From Blochmannia endosymbiont of Camponotus nipponensis (GTDB taxonomy: Bacteria > Pseudomonadota > Gammaproteobacteria > Enterobacterales > Enterobacteriaceae): a stretch of 32,000 bases of DNA. This document shows, one piece after another, positions 3,941 to 30,020 of the stretch. The notes under the pieces are model-generated. The model saw only the letters and a program-made list of their open reading frames with translations. It did not search any database and was not told where the DNA came from. The translations under genes were made by a program, and so were the position numbers. The stretch lies in NCBI RefSeq assembly GCF_009827135.1, contig NZ_CP046534.1, forward strand, positions 720,001 to 752,000, given 5' to 3'. The number at the start of each line of letters is the position of its first letter. Position 1 is the first letter of the stretch.

Positions 3941-4576
3941 TCATGTAATTTCAGTACATTGCATAGTACAGTCACTGCATTCAAATCCTACTTCTGGATG
4001 AAAGGTACAAATATTGCATGAGTTTATTTCTTTGCAACAATATAATTTAATACGATCTTTTTTAGTATATAAGTATGCTAAACCGATGCTTAATAAAATT
4101 ATAAGCATTATTGTTAAATTCATTATATATTTTACCTGATTTTTTATGTTGATCAGAATAGGTGATGACGAGTGATTGTTTTGATCCTCAGTTTTTTTCA
4201 GAGGAGAGGATATGTAGAGTTGATCTTCATTAATTTTTTCTATAATTAATTGATTATTTAATCTTAATCCTCGTTTAGGAATTGTTACAATAGACGAAGC
4301 TTCTAATCCAAAAGAAGTAAAAGTTTTTCTTATTAAACTAATTTGTTGATTTAAGTTTCCATTAGATGGTTCAAGTCCATAAGCTCTCCAAACGATTGAA
4401 AACAAGTGTTCTCGAGTAACTGGCGCGCAAACATCAGTATTCCGTTGTTTAATTAGTTCTTCTAATACCCGTCCAGCAGAATTAGACAATTTTACTGATG
4501 TATTAGAATCAGTTAATGATGTTAAAACATATTCTGTAGTGTCAAATATTATGGTAGATTGAATTACATATTTCAT
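3941..4576 (-). CDS. ToxR/CadC-like membrane-anchored winged-helix transcriptional regulator with a short Cys-rich periplasmic tail
   Basis: Residues ~25-108 align with the ToxR wHTH: LSNSAGRVLEELIK..VTREHLFSIVWRAYGLEPSNGNLNQQISLIRKTF...IVTIPKRGLRL versus ToxR LGSNESRILWLL..ISRNDLHDFVWREQGFEVDDSSLTQAISTLRKML..VKTVPKRGYQL. There is one hydrophobic segment, NLTIMLIILLSIGLAYLY (aa ~152-170). A 41-aa tail follows with Cys at 180, 181, 187, 190, 200, 203 and 207. A 636-nt ORF in DNA this AT-rich is unlikely to stay open by chance. Confidence 0.75.
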   Translation of the reverse strand: MKYVIQSTIIFDTTEYVLTSLTDSNTSVKLSNSAGRVLEELIKQRNTDVCAPVTREHLFSIVWRAYGLEPSNGNLNQQISLIRKTFTSFGLEASSIVTIPKRGLRLNNQLIIEKINEDQLYISSPLKKTEDQNNHSSSPILINIKNQVKYIMNLTIMLIILLSIGLAYLYTKKDRIKLYCCKEINSCNICTFHPEVGFECSDCTMQCTEIT

Positions 4577-5195: not shown

Positions 5196-7328
5196 ATGTA
5201 TATGGTATATGATGTATGGTGTATGGTGTATTTTTTATATTTTAAAATATTAATTCATATAATGTTATTTATAATATATTTCACATTGATTATGTTGATT
5301 GTTAATCATACTCAAGCTAATTCAAACGATGCATCATTTCACGGTAGATCCGAGGAAGTTTCCGTATCGGTGTCTGATGATATACAAAATTTGCCTATAT
5401 TATTACAAGAAAAAGTGCACGACGATATCGTAACTATTATTTTACCAAAAAATTCTCCATTAATTTTTACCTCTTCTCCCTCAAAATTTTTGCAATCGTT
5501 TTATGTAACTGATATGTCTGATTATTTAAAAAATATTGTTGGTTTTAATTCTATTCGTAACGGAGGAGTAAATAACGAACCAACATTTCGTGGAATGTTT
5601 GGGTCTCGGATACGTATTTTGATGAATAGTGGTGAAATACTTGGAGCTTGTTTTTCTCACATGGATCCTGTTAGTGCTTATATTTCTCCAAACACTTTTG
5701 ATATTTTAAATATTATTAAGGGCCCTCAAACGGTACTATGGGGTCCTGTAACATCTGGAGGTACATTACAATTTGAACGATATCATCCTCGTTTTGATAG
5801 ATCAAAAATTCAATTACGTAGCAATGTAGCAATTGGCGCAAATAATAGAATGGATAAAAATATAGATAGTATCATAGGGAATAAATATGGTTATCTTAGA
5901 TTAATAGGAGAGGTTTCTAGTGCGGATGATTATTATGATGGTAATAAACACCGAGTACATTCTGCATGGTATAAATGGAATGCTGATGCAATTTTATCAT
6001 TCAATATTGGTACGGACACATGTTTGGAAGTTAGTTTGGGACAAGGCAATGGTCATGCAAATTATGCTGCTCGATCTATGGATGGGTTATGTTTTGCTAG
6101 AGAAAGTTATGCAATAAAAATAGAAACTTCGAATATAAGTGAAACATTAGATAAAATTGAATTGCAAGCATGGCGCAATTATGTAAACCATATTATGGCT
6201 GATACTACTATACCTTATATTACAAAATCTTCTACTAAAAAATGTTGTGGTTTCAGTGAAAATTTCAATAACAATATTGATCGATTGATATGGGGGGTTC
6301 GAGGTATCGCTGTGTCTCAGTGGGATAATATTAAGTGTTACAGTGGTGCGGATCTACAAATTAATAAACATAGAAAATACGCACAATCTGATGCTAATTG
6401 GAAAACAGATATTATTTCTCAAGATACTGGTGTATTTACCGAATTGATTGTTGATTCGTTGTCAGATAGAAGATTAGTTGGCGGCGCGCGACTGGAATAT
6501 GGTGTAATTAATTTTAATAATCATTCTAAGTATAAACGAAATGCTATAGTATATCCTGCTGGATTTATACGATATGAAAATAATGTTAATCCATTATTGT
6601 CGTATTATATTGGTGTGGGAACAAGCTTTCGTTTTCCAGATTACTGGGAATTATTTTCTACTAAATTGGGTGAAAATCTTAATATTGAAAATATTTTTCA
6701 ATTAAAACCTGAAAGATCCATACAAATAGATACAGGAGTATATTTTCAGCATCTACAAACAAACGGATGGATATCATCTTATGTTGGGTATGTTAAAGAT
6801 TTTATTTTATCTGATTACAATAATCATGCTACCACATCAGATGATACTAATTATGCAAAAAACACTCATGTTAAAATATGTGGCGCTGAAGCAGGATTAA
6901 ATTATAAATTTAATGATCATTGGAGTACTGAAGGCAATATTTCATGGGCTTGGGGCGTTAATATAAACGATAATTTTATTTTGCCTACAATTCCTCCATT
7001 GGAAGGGAAAATAACATGTCAATGGACACACGGATATTACAGTATAGCTACTTTATGGAGGTTTATGTTAGCACAACAGTCTAATAATAATGAGTGGTTC
7101 CATACAAGAATAAATTGTAATACCCCAGGTTTTGGAATATTATCCGTACATCTAGCATGGACGAGTTCTCGATTTTATAAATTTAGCGTTGGTGTAGATA
7201 ATTTATTAAATCATAATTATAGAGAATACTTGAGTTCACATATTCATAAACGATTTGGATATCCTGATAGAAAGTTAATTTATGAACCAGGACGTACTTG
7301 GTGGGTTAAAGTAGGGATGATATTCTAA
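5196..7328 (+). CDS. TonB-dependent outer-membrane receptor, OprC/NosA (copper) family
   Basis: The plug motif is NEPTFRGMFGSRIRILMNSGEILGACFSHMDPVSAYISP ... IKGPQTVLWGP. A TonB-box-like DDIVTII lies near the N-terminus. The barrel is long and ends in a terminal aromatic (WWVKVGMIF). CxxxM (C152, M156) and HxM (H332, M334) are present. The start is uncertain: in-frame ATGs occur at 5196, 5223 and 5262. The signal-peptide-like MLFIIYFTLIMLIVNHTQA|NS begins at 5262. Confidence 0.88.
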   Translation: MYMVYDVWCMVYFLYFKILIHIMLFIIYFTLIMLIVNHTQANSNDASFHGRSEEVSVSVSDDIQNLPILLQEKVHDDIVTIILPKNSPLIFTSSPSKFLQSFYVTDMSDYLKNIVGFNSIRNGGVNNEPTFRGMFGSRIRILMNSGEILGACFSHMDPVSAYISPNTFDILNIIKGPQTVLWGPVTSGGTLQFERYHPRFDRSKIQLRSNVAIGANNRMDKNIDSIIGNKYGYLRLIGEVSSADDYYDGNKHRVHSAWYKWNADAILSFNIGTDTCLEVSLGQGNGHANYAARSMDGLCFARESYAIKIETSNISETLDKIELQAWRNYVNHIMADTTIPYITKSSTKKCCGFSENFNNNIDRLIWGVRGIAVSQWDNIKCYSGADLQINKHRKYAQSDANWKTDIISQDTGVFTELIVDSLSDRRLVGGARLEYGVINFNNHSKYKRNAIVYPAGFIRYENNVNPLLSYYIGVGTSFRFPDYWELFSTKLGENLNIENIFQLKPERSIQIDTGVYFQHLQTNGWISSYVGYVKDFILSDYNNHATTSDDTNYAKNTHVKICGAEAGLNYKFNDHWSTEGNISWAWGVNINDNFILPTIPPLEGKITCQWTHGYYSIATLWRFMLAQQSNNNEWFHTRINCNTPGFGILSVHLAWTSSRFYKFSVGVDNLLNHNYREYLSSHIHKRFGYPDRKLIYEPGRTWWVKVGMIF

Positions 7329-25697: not shown

Positions 25698-26312
25698 ATG
25701 CAGCAGCAACAACTACGTTTAGTAGTGGGAATATCAGGAGCATCTGGCGGTATTTATGGAATTCGCGCATTAACTATAATAAAACAATGTCCTATACATA
25801 TAGAATCTCATCTTATTGTCACTCGAAATGCTCTGATTACATTGCAACAAGAATTCAATATGAATAAACAAGCTGTATATGAATTAGCAGATGTTGTACA
25901 TTTTCCGCAAGATATTGGGGCATCCGTTGCTAGTGGATCATATCCAACTTTAGGTATGTTAATTGCTCCATGTTCTATTAGAACTATGTCAGAAATTAGT
26001 TCAGGTATGACATCATCATTGATGAGTCGTGTTGCAGATGTAATGTTAAAAGAAAAACGTAAATTAGTGCTGATGATCAGAGAAACTCCACTGCATCTGG
26101 GACATTTACGTACAATGGTTAAGTTGGCAGAATTTGGAGCGGTGATTATGCCACCTGTACCTGCATATTACACACATCCAAAAACTATAGATGATATCAT
26201 TTCTTATACTGTAGCAAGAGCTTTAAATTTATTTGGAATTAATACTACAATTTCTTCCACTTGGCTAGGAATCAAGCATCAAAATCATGACAACTTTATG
26301 AAATTAAACTAA
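25698..26312 (+). CDS. ubiX: Flavin prenyltransferase UbiX
   Basis: LVVGISGASGGIYGIR, APCSIRTMSEI, KEKRKLVLMIRETPLHLGHLRTM and GAVIMPPVPAYY are colinear with E. coli UbiX. Confidence 0.9.
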   Translation: MQQQQLRLVVGISGASGGIYGIRALTIIKQCPIHIESHLIVTRNALITLQQEFNMNKQAVYELADVVHFPQDIGASVASGSYPTLGMLIAPCSIRTMSEISSGMTSSLMSRVADVMLKEKRKLVLMIRETPLHLGHLRTMVKLAEFGAVIMPPVPAYYTHPKTIDDIISYTVARALNLFGINTTISSTWLGIKHQNHDNFMKLN

Positions 26313-26386: not shown

Positions 26387-28372
26387 TTATTTATTAGAAG
26401 TAAAACTATCATCATCACTACTACTGTTATCTGTAATGCAATCTTCGTGCATAGATGATGCAGATTGAGCAATATTTAATTTAATAAATATTTTTTCCAT
26501 ATCACCAAAGTATTTGTTTTTTTTTCTCTCTGCTATAGTATTTTCAAGTTTATTTATATGTTCTGTGGTACCTATTAAAGAAAATTTAGTTTGCTTATGT
26601 GCAGACAAACGGTACGATAAATCTTCATTTTTATTCAATATAACTTTAGAATGTTCAACCAAATTATCATGTATCTCTTTTTTATTTCTATTTTCTTCAG
26701 AATCAGCATCATGATCTTCATGAAACGCAGAAGAGGACGATAGCGGTAATGTATCATCGTTTAATGTTGATGATGCAATGATAAATGAAGATTCTTTTTC
26801 TGAAAAAAGCAAAGGAATTGGAGGAGGAATAGGAATGGAAAGTATACAATCATTTTCTGTTGTAACATTCTGTGCATGTTCTTTTGTAGTATCGTGTGTG
26901 ATATGTTCTGTAGTAATATTTGAAAGAGACATATTATTTTTTGTTTGATGATGATCATCATTATACATTGATGTATGTGTAACTGTGTCTTTTACAACAT
27001 TAATTTCGGAATCATTATTAAAATTAATAACGGAAGAAGAAGTTTGTTTTTGTGTGTTTAATGATTGTTTTTGTGAAAAATCTTTTACTAAAATAGGTAT
27101 ATCTTGTTTTCTTTGTTTTTGAGGAGTTTTATTTGAATTCGTAATATATGAAATAAAAATTTTGTCTTCTTGTGTAATAGGATGGTCAGGTAAATATAAC
27201 GCATAAGTGTCATTTGTTATTGCAATGATATTACCTCCTTGATTTTGCAGTAACTGAAAATTCCATTGTATAGATTCGTTATCACTGTCATCAATTTTAA
27301 TTATTTTTATTTCTCCAGGATAACCCGTTATTTTTTGAATATTTTGTAATGATTTAGTGTAATTATTATGTTTATTAAATAGAATACAATCACGACATGG
27401 AGTGACGGTAGGTATAAATGGTGATTGCACCATAGTATCAATATCGCTCAATATTGATTTATTTCGTTTATTTGTATAATTTATTTGTTCTGCAATAGGC
27501 ACACCAAATTGATAATTTATCAATACCTGACAAACAGTATTAAAATATTTATTGTTTACAAAAATATTGTTTATATTGCATCCTAATATGGGAAAAGGTT
27601 GATAATTTAGAGCTAATGATATACAGTAGTCGTTATTTTTTTTATTAAAAATTTTTTTGTATTTTTTGCTATAAACAAATTGCTCTAATTTTATTTTTCC
27701 AGTAAATTCGGGAAAATATGGAAATTTAGTGTGCATATGTATTTGGTAGCCACTTTTTGGGCAGTGTATGCTACATTTTTTTGATGATGATGTTTCAAAA
27801 TTAAAAACACTATTTAAATTATAATAATTGTTTAGCATAAATAATGTATTATATAACCAATATTCTACGCCAACATTAATTGAATATGGTTGACTACTGT
27901 GACTAGAAAGAGGGCAATGGTAAAAAGTATTGTATCCAATAGCATATTTATCATTAGTTAAATGTCTTTTTCCCCCTCCAAAATTAAAAATTGGTTCTGA
28001 TAAAAAATCATGTATTCCTAGTTGCATGAAAGATATATTTTTTTGATGTGTGCTACATTGTGTATGAAATGAGTGGAACATATTTATAGAATTATTTTGT
28101 AATTGTATTTTAGATCTGTAAATAGAAGAAAATGGAGATGTATAATTATACGCATGCACACGCAGTTTATTTGTTGTATAGGGAGAAAAATTGAGAGTTT
28201 GACGTACATAGTCTTGAGTATTACATTTCATTTCTTTCTGATATGTTTCATCTTGAAACATACTATTACTCATCATATTAAACTTAACGTTATTTTTGAA
28301 CGTATTACACCAAGCGGTCTCGTTGTGTACAAGTATTTGAAATACTATTCCCAATATAATTAATCTCAGCAT
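26387..28372 (-). CDS. Inverse autotransporter (intimin/invasin-family beta-barrel plus one Ig-like module) with a long disordered C-terminal tail
   Basis: There is a signal-peptide-like N-terminus (MLRLIILGIVFQILV). Residues ~165-300 track the intimin barrel as I recall it: GVEYWLYNTLF.. vs GAEYWRDYFK; KSGYQIHMHTKFPYFPEFTGKIKLEQF vs ANGFDIRFNGYLPSYPALGAKLIYEQY; LALNYQPFPIL vs VGVNYTPIPLV; INYQFGVPIAEQI vs FRYQFDKSWSQQI. IQWNFQLLQNQGGNI matches IVWDDSALRSQGGQI of the first Ig-like module. The frame stays open for ~2 kb in very AT-rich DNA. I prefer ATG 28372 as the start; the track uses TTG 28378. Confidence 0.78.
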   Translation of the reverse strand: MLRLIILGIVFQILVHNETAWCNTFKNNVKFNMMSNSMFQDETYQKEMKCNTQDYVRQTLNFSPYTTNKLRVHAYNYTSPFSSIYRSKIQLQNNSINMFHSFHTQCSTHQKNISFMQLGIHDFLSEPIFNFGGGKRHLTNDKYAIGYNTFYHCPLSSHSSQPYSINVGVEYWLYNTLFMLNNYYNLNSVFNFETSSSKKCSIHCPKSGYQIHMHTKFPYFPEFTGKIKLEQFVYSKKYKKIFNKKNNDYCISLALNYQPFPILGCNINNIFVNNKYFNTVCQVLINYQFGVPIAEQINYTNKRNKSILSDIDTMVQSPFIPTVTPCRDCILFNKHNNYTKSLQNIQKITGYPGEIKIIKIDDSDNESIQWNFQLLQNQGGNIIAITNDTYALYLPDHPITQEDKIFISYITNSNKTPQKQRKQDIPILVKDFSQKQSLNTQKQTSSSVINFNNDSEINVVKDTVTHTSMYNDDHHQTKNNMSLSNITTEHITHDTTKEHAQNVTTENDCILSIPIPPPIPLLFSEKESSFIIASSTLNDDTLPLSSSSAFHEDHDADSEENRNKKEIHDNLVEHSKVILNKNEDLSYRLSAHKQTKFSLIGTTEHINKLENTIAERKKNKYFGDMEKIFIKLNIAQSASSMHEDCITDNSSSDDDSFTSNK

Positions 28373-28526
28373 GTTCAATATTTTGTTTTAATGAAAATAT
28401 TTTGTATTGTACATAATATATAGTATATTTATATTTTAATTTTTACAGTCTTAAATAAATAATCAATATATATAAATTTATTAAATTAACAATCAAATTT
28501 TTAAATAAAAATTGAATTTTTTTAAT

Positions 28527-28568
28527 AATATATATCATTTGTATGTTTACATACAAATGATATATATT
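28527..28568. repeat. Perfect inverted repeat: 20-bp arms (28527-28546 / 28549-28568) and a 2-nt loop, running into a T-run
   Basis: Checked by hand: aatatatatcatttgtatgt / tt / acatacaaatgatatatatt. It lies in the divergent spacer, 48 nt upstream of the fumC ATG. Confidence 0.95.
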
Positions 28569-28616
28569 TTTCGTAATTCAAGAACACAATAATTTTCTAT
28601 TGAAGAGGTTATTATT

Positions 28617-30020
28617 ATGGTGACACGTATTGAACAAGATACTATGGGAAGTGTTTTAGTACCGAAAAATCGATTATGGGGAGCACAAACACAACGTGCG
28701 TTAAAATATTTTAATATTTCTGATGAAAAAATTCCTTTTTCATTAATTCAAGCCTTAGCACAAATCAAATGTGCAGCGGCACAAGTAAATTACGATCTAA
28801 AATTATTAGATTGTGAAAGGGCTAAAGCAATTATTAAAGCGGCAAAAGAAGTATTATCTGGAATGCATAAGGACGAGTTTCCAATATCAGTGTGGCAAAC
28901 TGGATCTGGGACTCAAAGTAACATGAATATGAATGAAGTTTTAGCTAATCGAGCCAATAAATTGTTAAAAAATAAACAAGGTGTAAATAATAAATTTATT
29001 CATCCAAATGATCATGTCAATAAAAGTCAAAGTTCAAATGACGTTTTCCCTAGCGCAATGCATATTGCAGCAGTAATTAATTTAAATGAACAGCTAATAC
29101 CTAAGGTTAAAACATTACAAAACACTTTACTTGGTAAATCTATTGAATTTAATAATATTATTAAAATTGGGCGTACTCATCTTCAAGATGCTACTCCCTT
29201 AACTTTAGGACAGGAAATTTCTGCTTGGGTATCTATGCTACAACATAACATAGACCATATAAAAGTTACTATACCCCATTTATGCGAATTAGCTTTAGGT
29301 GGAACAGCAGTAGGCACAGGCCTTAATACTCATCCGGAATATGCCAGTCGTATTGCTGATGCATTATCACTGCTTACTGGACATGTTTTTGTTAGCGCAT
29401 CAAATAAATTTGAATCATTATCAACATGTGATGCATTAGTACATAGTCATGGTTCTTTAAAGGGTCTAGCGGTTTCTATGACGAAAATTGCTAACGATAT
29501 ACGTTTACTATCCTCTGGGCCTAGATGTGGTATAGGTGAATTAAGCATTCCTGAAAATGAACCAGGTAGCTCGATGATGCCAGGAAAAGTTAATCCAACG
29601 CAATGTGAATCCATGACTATGTTGTGTTCTCAAATTATGGGAAATGATGTTAGTATAAATATTGGTGGTGCGTCTGGTCATTTTGAATTAAATGTATATA
29701 GGCCATTAATTATATATAATTTCTTACAATCAACACGTTTGTTGGCAGACGGTATAGACAGTTTTCATAAATATTGTATTGTAGGAATTCAACCGAAGTA
29801 TCAACGAATTAAAGAATTCCTTGATAGTTCACTTATGTTGGTTACTGCGTTAACTCCTTATCTTGGATATGATAAATCAGCAGAAATTGCTAAAAAGGCG
29901 CATTTAGGAGGATTAAGTTTAAGAGAAGCTGCTTTACAATTAGGTTATGTAAATGATCGACAGTTTGATGAATGGGTCTGCCCAGAAAATATGATTAGCC
30001 CTTCAGAAATATTACAGTGA
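28617..30020 (+). CDS. fumC: Class II fumarate hydratase
   Basis: [39 protein letters not shown] and the signature [15 protein letters not shown] are colinear with E. coli FumC. GAAGAGG lies 9 nt upstream of the ATG. Confidence 0.97.

Follow-up and report, generated by a model that had tools for sequence, protein, structure and literature searches.

What kind of surface protein is encoded between ubiX and fumC in Camponotus nipponensis' endosymbiont Blochmannia, and what could it do for a bacterium that lives inside ant cells? The question is raised by a long open reading frame (ORF) in a 32,000-nt stretch of contig NZ_CP046534.1 (positions 720,001 to 752,000; hereafter the window), for which an initial annotation had proposed an adhesin of the intimin/invasin type. 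We regard it as almost certain that the product has the organisation of a type Ve protein, i.e., a signal peptide, a canonical 12-stranded barrel of the intimin/invasin type, a helical linker and, at the C-terminus, a passenger. In Blochmannia it appears to function as a type Ve (inverse) autotransporter. The passenger is composed of one small β module, a disordered polyproline stalk and a helical Ser/acidic module of ~70 aa.

The inverse autotransporter and its barrel

The gene corresponds to a single ORF of 663 aa when counted from TTG (26387..28378, minus strand; stop codon at 26387-26389). The DNA at its 5' end reads TTG AAC ATG, and we placed the start at the ATG at position 28372, which yields a product of 661 aa, because the N-terminus of every orthologue aligns with that ATG. 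Based on the DNA and on the orthologue alignment, the complete coding sequence of the inverse autotransporter (IAT) thus extends over 26387..28372 (661 aa plus stop), and all its parts described below are likewise on the minus strand. Residues are numbered according to the 661-aa form (the numbering in the initial annotation is higher by two). Note that an existing gene call (P0001, 624 aa) begins at Met-40, 39 residues into the 663-aa ORF (region 28262..28378), and therefore omits the conserved signal peptide. The GC content across the window is 19-35% (about 28%), and the probability that a frame of 661 codons stays open by chance is ~1e-25 (our own arithmetic from base frequencies); a 2-kb open frame in such DNA is therefore no chance event.

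The assignment is carried by the barrel. In a Pfam scan of the protein, IAT_beta (PF11924) matches residues 40-306 with E=2.2e-27 (96.8 bits, gathering cutoff 22.3) and is the only significant match; the same domain is present in all orthologues. Searching the PDB with phmmer aligned residues 115-301 with the β-domains of invasin (4E1T, E=1.9e-15) and intimin (4E1S, E=1.3e-8). The AlphaFold2 (AF2) model predicts exactly 12 strands between residues 85 and 285, with a predicted local confidence (pLDDT) of 75-88; this model is based on a multiple sequence alignment of 25 sequences, an alignment of 11 sequences having given a pLDDT of 30. When the model was compared with the PDB using Foldseek, 4E1T, 4E1S and 5G26 were ranked at the top (E 3e-11 to 1e-9, TM score 0.59-0.61; E=2.9e-11 and TM score 0.61 for 4E1T), and generic outer-membrane barrels were found far lower. 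A 12-stranded IAT β-barrel is thus assigned to residues 85-287 (27512..28120) on the basis of Pfam, PDB, AF2 and Foldseek. The barrel postulated in the initial annotation is thereby confirmed; the residues proposed for it (~165-300) do lie inside the domain but cover only its C-terminal two thirds (AF2 85-285, Pfam 40-306). The best NCBIfam matches are also all inverse-autotransporter models (YchO/YchP, SinH, Ilp, YrIlm, Inv), although they are far under the equivalog cutoffs and essentially confined to the barrel. The identification of the barrel has a precedent, as the orthologues carry the name "inverse autotransporter beta domain-containing protein" at NCBI.

The order of the parts is the inverted one that defines the family, with a hydrophobic N-terminus, the barrel at residues 85-287, helices at 293-311 and then ~350 more residues. 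A putative Sec signal peptide (residues 1-22, MLRLIILGIVFQILVHNETAWC; 28307..28372) was recognized by inspection. It has a basic n-region, a 12-residue hydrophobic core and A-W-C/G at positions -3/-1, a pattern that is conserved in the orthologues; AF2 predicts an N-terminal helix at residues 2-31. The following N-terminal region (residues 23-84; 28121..28306), presumably periplasmic, has a conservation of 0.33-0.41 and a pLDDT below 40. No LysM domain was matched in the Pfam scan of the protein, in line with the initial annotation. Downstream of the barrel, the linker (residues 288-344; 27341..27511) was delimited by its AF2 secondary structure, i.e., short helices at residues 293-301 and 307-311, and by the conserved QPFIP that follows, in which all 25 sequences share F319 and P321. 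By analogy with the structures of intimin and invasin, the linker with QPFIP is presumably the plug helix and the pore-traversing strand.

Anatomy of the passenger

The passenger starts with a single β-rich module of ~88 aa (residues 345-432; 27077..27340 from the translation). AF2 predicts seven strands here, spanning residues 348-429 at a pLDDT of ~80, and the model is compatible with a small β-sandwich. The sequence of the module (GYPGEIKII ... QW ... GGNI ... YALYLP ... ISY ... IxIxVKDF) has a ratio of nonsynonymous to synonymous substitutions (dN/dS) of 0.15-0.26 (all dN/dS values given here were calculated according to Nei-Gojobori for two close pairs). In searches of the protein and of family profiles against Pfam and the PDB, no match to Big_1, Big_2, Invasin_D3, Intimin_C or other Ig domains was found at E<=10. 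A match to an SRPBCC protein (E=0.006 over 50 residues) was judged to be due to chance. In one lineage, the IAT has only 600 aa (P0012, L083:6565-8367), and its β module is shortened to ~52 aa and lacks the ISY and IxIxVKxF strands. This protein retains the polyproline motif as well as an intact C-terminal module ending in ...TEDSSDF, and the preservation of the distal module despite the cut in the β module is a hint that the distal module matters more.

The β module is followed by a disordered spacer (residues 433-581; 26630..27076) with a pLDDT of 21-36 and a conservation of 0.27-0.35. It is rich in S, T, N, Q and H, has a net charge of -12, varies between 120 and 241 aa among the orthologues and has a dN/dS of 0.28-0.44; it behaves like an intrinsically disordered stalk. 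Within this spacer, the translation reveals the polyproline motif IPIPPPIP (26813..26836), which takes the forms APPPPPIP, FPAPPPPPIP, FPPPPPEMP and PPIPPPLP in relatives. All 25 sequences share P514, P516 and P517, and a regular expression for the motif matches 23 of the 25, P0021 having a degenerate form. The divergent proteins P0011 (L001) and P0013, whose spacers are much longer, possess a second proline motif (LPFPPPS / LPLPPPP) ~40 residues upstream. No further PPP run is present in the other 6044 aa encoded by the ORFs of the window (Pro frequency 0.032). As GC-rich CCN codons are kept here in DNA of ~28% GC, and no other PPP run is encoded in the window, the retention of the motif is attributed to selection. 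Two weak matches of the passenger were judged to be due to chance, namely to the GGA1 hinge (E=0.016), which is driven by the proline run, and to the N-terminus of the CERT START protein ("FSSVGTHRFVQKVEE", E 0.7-1.8).

The C-terminal module (residues 582-661; 26390..26629) was delimited by translation, conservation and profile search. AF2 predicts helices at residues 585-597, 603-618 and 624-636 (pLDDT 50-67), and the module ends with a Ser-rich acidic tail, SxSS[IV]xE...TDDS..DSF. Its conservation (0.61-0.68) equals or exceeds that of the barrel, no other part outside the barrel is conserved as well, its dN/dS is 0.15-0.24, and five of its residues (F597, E610, S639, S640 and T647) do not vary among the 25 sequences. 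A set of 1.84 billion representative proteins was searched with the profile of this module; in this exhaustive search, performed without a word index, it matched only the C-termini of 15 clusters (at 50% identity; 600-788 aa) of Blochmannia-type IATs and one further protein, a plant-like repeat protein (P0025) that was judged to be spurious. The C-terminal module is an invention restricted to this lineage.

This anatomy agrees only in part with the intimin/invasin-type adhesin that had been read from the sequence initially. The barrel stands, and a β-rich module is indeed located where an Ig-like module had been suspected (~345-415), but this module matches no Big_1 or other Ig profile, it is the only one, and the passenger is devoid of Big_1, Big_2 and C-type-lectin domains. 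Furthermore, the distal half of the passenger, consisting of the disordered spacer with its proline motif and of the lineage-specific C-terminal module, had been missed.

Conservation and selection in Blochmannia

All the retrieved homologues originate from Blochmannia, the endosymbionts of carpenter ants (genomes of 776-791 kb). The gene order nth-fumC-IAT-ubiX-kdsB-ycaR-lpxK-msbA is identical in all eight loci examined, i.e., the window, B. pennsylvanicus-type (L002, L084), vicinus-type (L085, L086), two divergent Logan assemblies (L001, L083) and B. floridanus (L041), which has a 705-kb genome and an orthologue of 680 aa. In the gene-order table of Williams and Wernegreen (2015), genes listed by locus tag only are located between fumC and ubiX in B. 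obliquus (BOBLI757_377), B. turneri (BTURN675_365) and B. chromaiodes (BCHRO640_396) (PMC4389277); the IAT gene is therefore present in the symbiont lineages of Colobopsis, Polyrhachis and Camponotus. A word-indexed profile search for relatives of the barrel and the module outside Blochmannia returned only Blochmannia proteins. Searching genome contigs with the IAT alignment returned nothing, and when genome contigs were queried with fumC, B. floridanus was the only Blochmannia genome represented in the 80 loci that were retained.

The 24 orthologues that were retrieved measure 600-788 aa, and each of them is full length. The protein is a fast-evolving one, with an identity of 33-39% between the deep lineages; FumC of the window and of B. 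floridanus share 71%. The dN/dS of the whole IAT gene is 0.275 and 0.185, compared to 0.06-0.21 in eleven neighbouring genes, and it is below 0.45 in every segment of the gene, indicating that the selection acting on each of them is purifying. The active selection on the 2-kb frame that had been deduced from its mere length is thus corroborated by the dN/dS values (0.185-0.275), by the intact state of 24 out of 24 orthologues and by the conserved synteny. The initial annotation had also named three findings that would speak against it, and the opposite was found for each of them: a significant barrel profile match, a predicted β-barrel and retrieved orthologues that are all intact. Its "synteny break" between ubiX and fumC holds only relative to the gene neighbourhoods in E. 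coli, but within Blochmannia the position of the gene is perfectly conserved.

Neighbouring genes and further observations in the window

The IAT gene is convergent with ubiX (25698..26312, plus strand), as described before, with a gap of 74 bp, and divergent from fumC (starting at 28617, plus strand), which lies 244 bp upstream. A search for terminator-like sites gave none, and promoter-like sites did not exceed the level expected after shuffling. The fumC-IAT intergenic region contains a 23-nt inverted repeat (28524..28571; AATAATATATATCATTTGTATGT/ACATACAAATGATATATATTTTT) with 96% complementarity and a 2-nt loop. No conserved equivalent of it is present in the 7 other Blochmannia loci; this AT-rich palindrome may have arisen by chance, or it may serve as an operator specific to the strain.

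Besides the IAT, the window encodes another outer-membrane barrel without a housekeeping role, an ORF of 710 aa (5196..7328, plus strand) that scores as a TonB-dependent copper receptor (TIGR01778, 481 bits, cutoff 472) and corresponds to "oprC" of the published Blochmannia gene order. Another ORF (211 aa; 3941..4576, minus strand) has no NCBIfam match at E<=1e-10; its position matches that of "yqeI" in the published gene order. In the Logan assembly SRR31149409, the slot occupied elsewhere by pdxH (L083:2255-2797) contains two short ORFs (90 and 66 aa) without a Pfam match, and pdxH is probably a pseudogene in this lineage.

A possible role in host contact

What could such a protein do? Blochmannia is located in the cytoplasm without a symbiosomal membrane (Stoll et al., PMC3009655), and an exported passenger would therefore face the host cytosol during most of the life of the bacterium. 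Judging from the family, the protein would be exported via Sec and cleaved by LepB, then escorted by the chaperones SurA/Skp and inserted by the β-barrel assembly machinery (BAM); the passenger would then be exported as a hairpin through the barrel, with the QPFIP linker remaining in the pore (PMC4943183, PMC3467248). Each of the three deep Blochmannia lineages still possesses bamA, bamD, skp, surA and lepB (PMC4389277, supplement). According to the anatomy, the β module would be situated at the mouth of the barrel, and the stalk would push the polyproline motif and the C-terminal module beyond the lipopolysaccharide layer, where both may bind host proteins. We therefore tentatively propose, as a possibility that falls just short of being probable, that the IAT passenger is a docking device for host proteins on the bacterial surface.

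In eukaryotes, both kinds of motif are typically read by cytosolic modules: polyproline motifs by SH3, WW and EVH1 domains and by profilin, for instance, and invariant Ser/Thr followed by acidic residues by CK2-type kinases. The partner of the polyproline motif would accordingly be a proline-recognition domain, and that of the invariant Ser/Thr acidic tail could bind in a phospho-dependent manner; as Blochmannia lies naked in the bacteriocyte cytoplasm, both partners would most likely be cytosolic. The same surface module could also serve cell-to-cell or oocyte entry. Blochmannia appears to invade enterocytes at metamorphosis as well as oocytes, and the factors involved were stated to be unknown (Stoll et al., PMC3009655).

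Several points weigh against docking. Searches of Pfam and the PDB, both with sequences and with profiles, revealed no similarity of the passenger to characterized binding domains, and its partner is therefore a guess. AF2 models the C-terminal helices with a confidence of only 50-67 and leaves the spacer unmodelled. A polyproline segment need not be a ligand and can simply act as a rigid spacer. In B. floridanus, neither the length of the proline run nor the terminal aromatic residue is conserved (the protein ends with ...TTDDS). Finally, the orthologues were retrieved as called proteins, and pseudogenised copies in some lineages would therefore escape.

In a weakened form of the initial reading, the same protein could be a classical extracellular adhesin/invasin. 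Its passenger would bind an outer receptor of the ant cell, and only in the brief periods when the bacterium is extracellular or being transferred, i.e., when oocytes are infected or when midgut cells are colonised at metamorphosis. Uptake would then be triggered in the manner of Yersinia invasin, and the stalk, being disordered, would be no more than a spacer. The barrel is closest to that of invasin, the published microscopy suggests cell-invasive behaviour (PMC3009655), and the receptor-binding element of intimin and invasin is likewise located at the C-terminal tip (PMC4943183). We nevertheless consider this rather unlikely, as the passenger possesses neither an Ig-domain rod nor a lectin-like tip, the bacterium spends nearly all its life in the cytosol, and a polyproline motif together with an invariant Ser/Thr acidic tail would typify intracellular eukaryotic recognition. 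Note that docking in the cytosol and adhesion during transfer are compatible with each other. If, on the other hand, the passenger were fully dispensable, the protein would be an outer-membrane structural protein or pore, carrying the decaying remnant of an ancestral adhesin. Such a remnant would explain why no domain is recognizable in the passenger, why the spacer evolves fastest (dN/dS up to 0.44, column conservation 27-35%) and why the β module is truncated in one lineage, and "beta-only" IAT architectures are known (PMC4943183). However, the extreme C-terminus equals the barrel in conservation even between lineages with an overall identity of only 30-40%, the frame is open through 350 passenger codons in 25 of 25 sequences, dN/dS is below 0.45 throughout, and the prolines are invariant despite the AT bias. 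This explanation is disfavoured and appears highly improbable to us.

A more specific form of host contact would be actin nucleation, with a tail resembling the proline-rich domain, WH2, central and acidic regions of the WASP family that recruits profilin, actin and Arp2/3 (cf. RickA, ActA, BimA, IcsA). By eye, the layout is similar to that of the WAVE/WASP WH2-central-acidic (VCA) region: after the proline run come a helix that is amphipathic and bears a basic patch (in divergent orthologues, NLLHLLSxHKKSKF), a charged helix, a second amphipathic helix and a Ser/Asp/Glu tail, the last residue of which is often F or Y; the cytosolic lifestyle (PMC3009655) would fit as well. Nevertheless, neither single sequences nor profiles gave a WH2 or WASP match in Pfam and the PDB at E<=10, and hhalign against approximate VCA sequences of WASP, N-WASP and WAVE scored 9.35, compared to 8.5 +/- 1.8 for column-shuffled controls, 24.5% of which scored at least as high. 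Moreover, there is no conserved Trp, and the aromatic residue after the acidic run is absent in B. floridanus and several others. We also know of no reported actin tails on Blochmannia. The profile searches and the shuffle test thus give no support to WASP/WAVE-like VCA mimicry, only the proline run being present, and an actin-nucleating function as such seems improbable.

Significance for the symbiosis

If the passenger does dock to host proteins, a bolder interpretation, which we regard as a long shot, is that the type Ve barrel is the platform on which a mutualist shows eukaryote-like short linear motifs to the host cytosol and thereby hijacks a cytoskeletal or membrane-trafficking machine. 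The motifs displayed would then be, with equally little likelihood, an FH1/ActA-like polyproline and an acidic Ser/Thr tail phosphorylatable by CK2-type kinases beside short amphipathic helices. Were this true, the device could be used for positioning, for segregation at bacteriocyte division, for cell-to-cell spread at metamorphosis and for transfer into oocytes, and it would be a mutualist counterpart of ActA, IcsA or BimA. To our knowledge, the Blochmannia genome encodes no type III secretion systems and no classical effectors. How Blochmannia moves between cells is acknowledged as an open question (PMC3009655).

Independently of the mode of binding, the IAT gene appears to be among the very few non-housekeeping surface protein genes that were kept by every lineage for ~40 million years, whereas ompA, oprC and tonB were lost repeatedly in Blochmannia (PMC4389277). 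Its retention while these genes were lost makes it a concrete, testable candidate for a host-interaction or invasion factor, and it offers three experimental handles, one suited to heterologous display (the barrel) and two in the passenger (the polyproline motif and the conserved C-terminal module).

Comparison with known systems

In literature searches, no paper was found that connects Blochmannia to invasin, to intimin or to inverse autotransporters. As far as lifestyle and passenger composition are concerned, functional analogues are Listeria ActA, Burkholderia BimA, Shigella IcsA and Rickettsia RickA/Sca2. In these cases as well, a cytosolic bacterium carries a surface protein with a disordered region, polyproline and an acidic Ser-rich segment; the analogy does not extend to sequence or profile similarity, to type Ve secretion or to the mutualistic nature of the bearer.

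Among the inverse autotransporters, YchO/YchP of E. coli (NF007556) is the best NCBIfam match of the barrel (63.1 bits) and, like SinH (NF033423), belongs to the short enterobacterial IATs. The comparison with YchO and SinH recommended in the initial annotation shows that the Blochmannia protein is not an equivalog of either, as it scores 63.1 bits (cutoff 508) and 47.1 bits (cutoff 999), respectively. Their similarity to it is confined to the barrel, and therefore no orthology is claimed. Heinz et al. (2016) described "Invasin_beta-only" IATs, in which only the β-domain is recognized (PMC4943183). The databases likewise recognize only the β-domain of the Blochmannia IAT; its unannotated ~370 aa, however, show a pattern of conservation and structure that this description does not cover, as they are under purifying selection and include a family-specific conserved terminal module.

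The best matches in both sequence and structure are Yersinia invasin (4E1T) and intimin of enterohaemorrhagic and enteropathogenic E. coli (4E1S), which share with the Blochmannia IAT the signal peptide, the 12-stranded IAT_beta barrel, the helical linker and the C-terminal passenger. In contrast to them, the Blochmannia protein has no LysM domain, no Big_1/Big_2 rod and no C-type-lectin tip, and its bearer is a cytosolic mutualist rather than an extracellular pathogen. By its barrel and topology, the Blochmannia IAT thus belongs to the family without being an intimin or invasin sensu stricto, and its passenger would widen the IAT repertoire past Ig and lectin rods.

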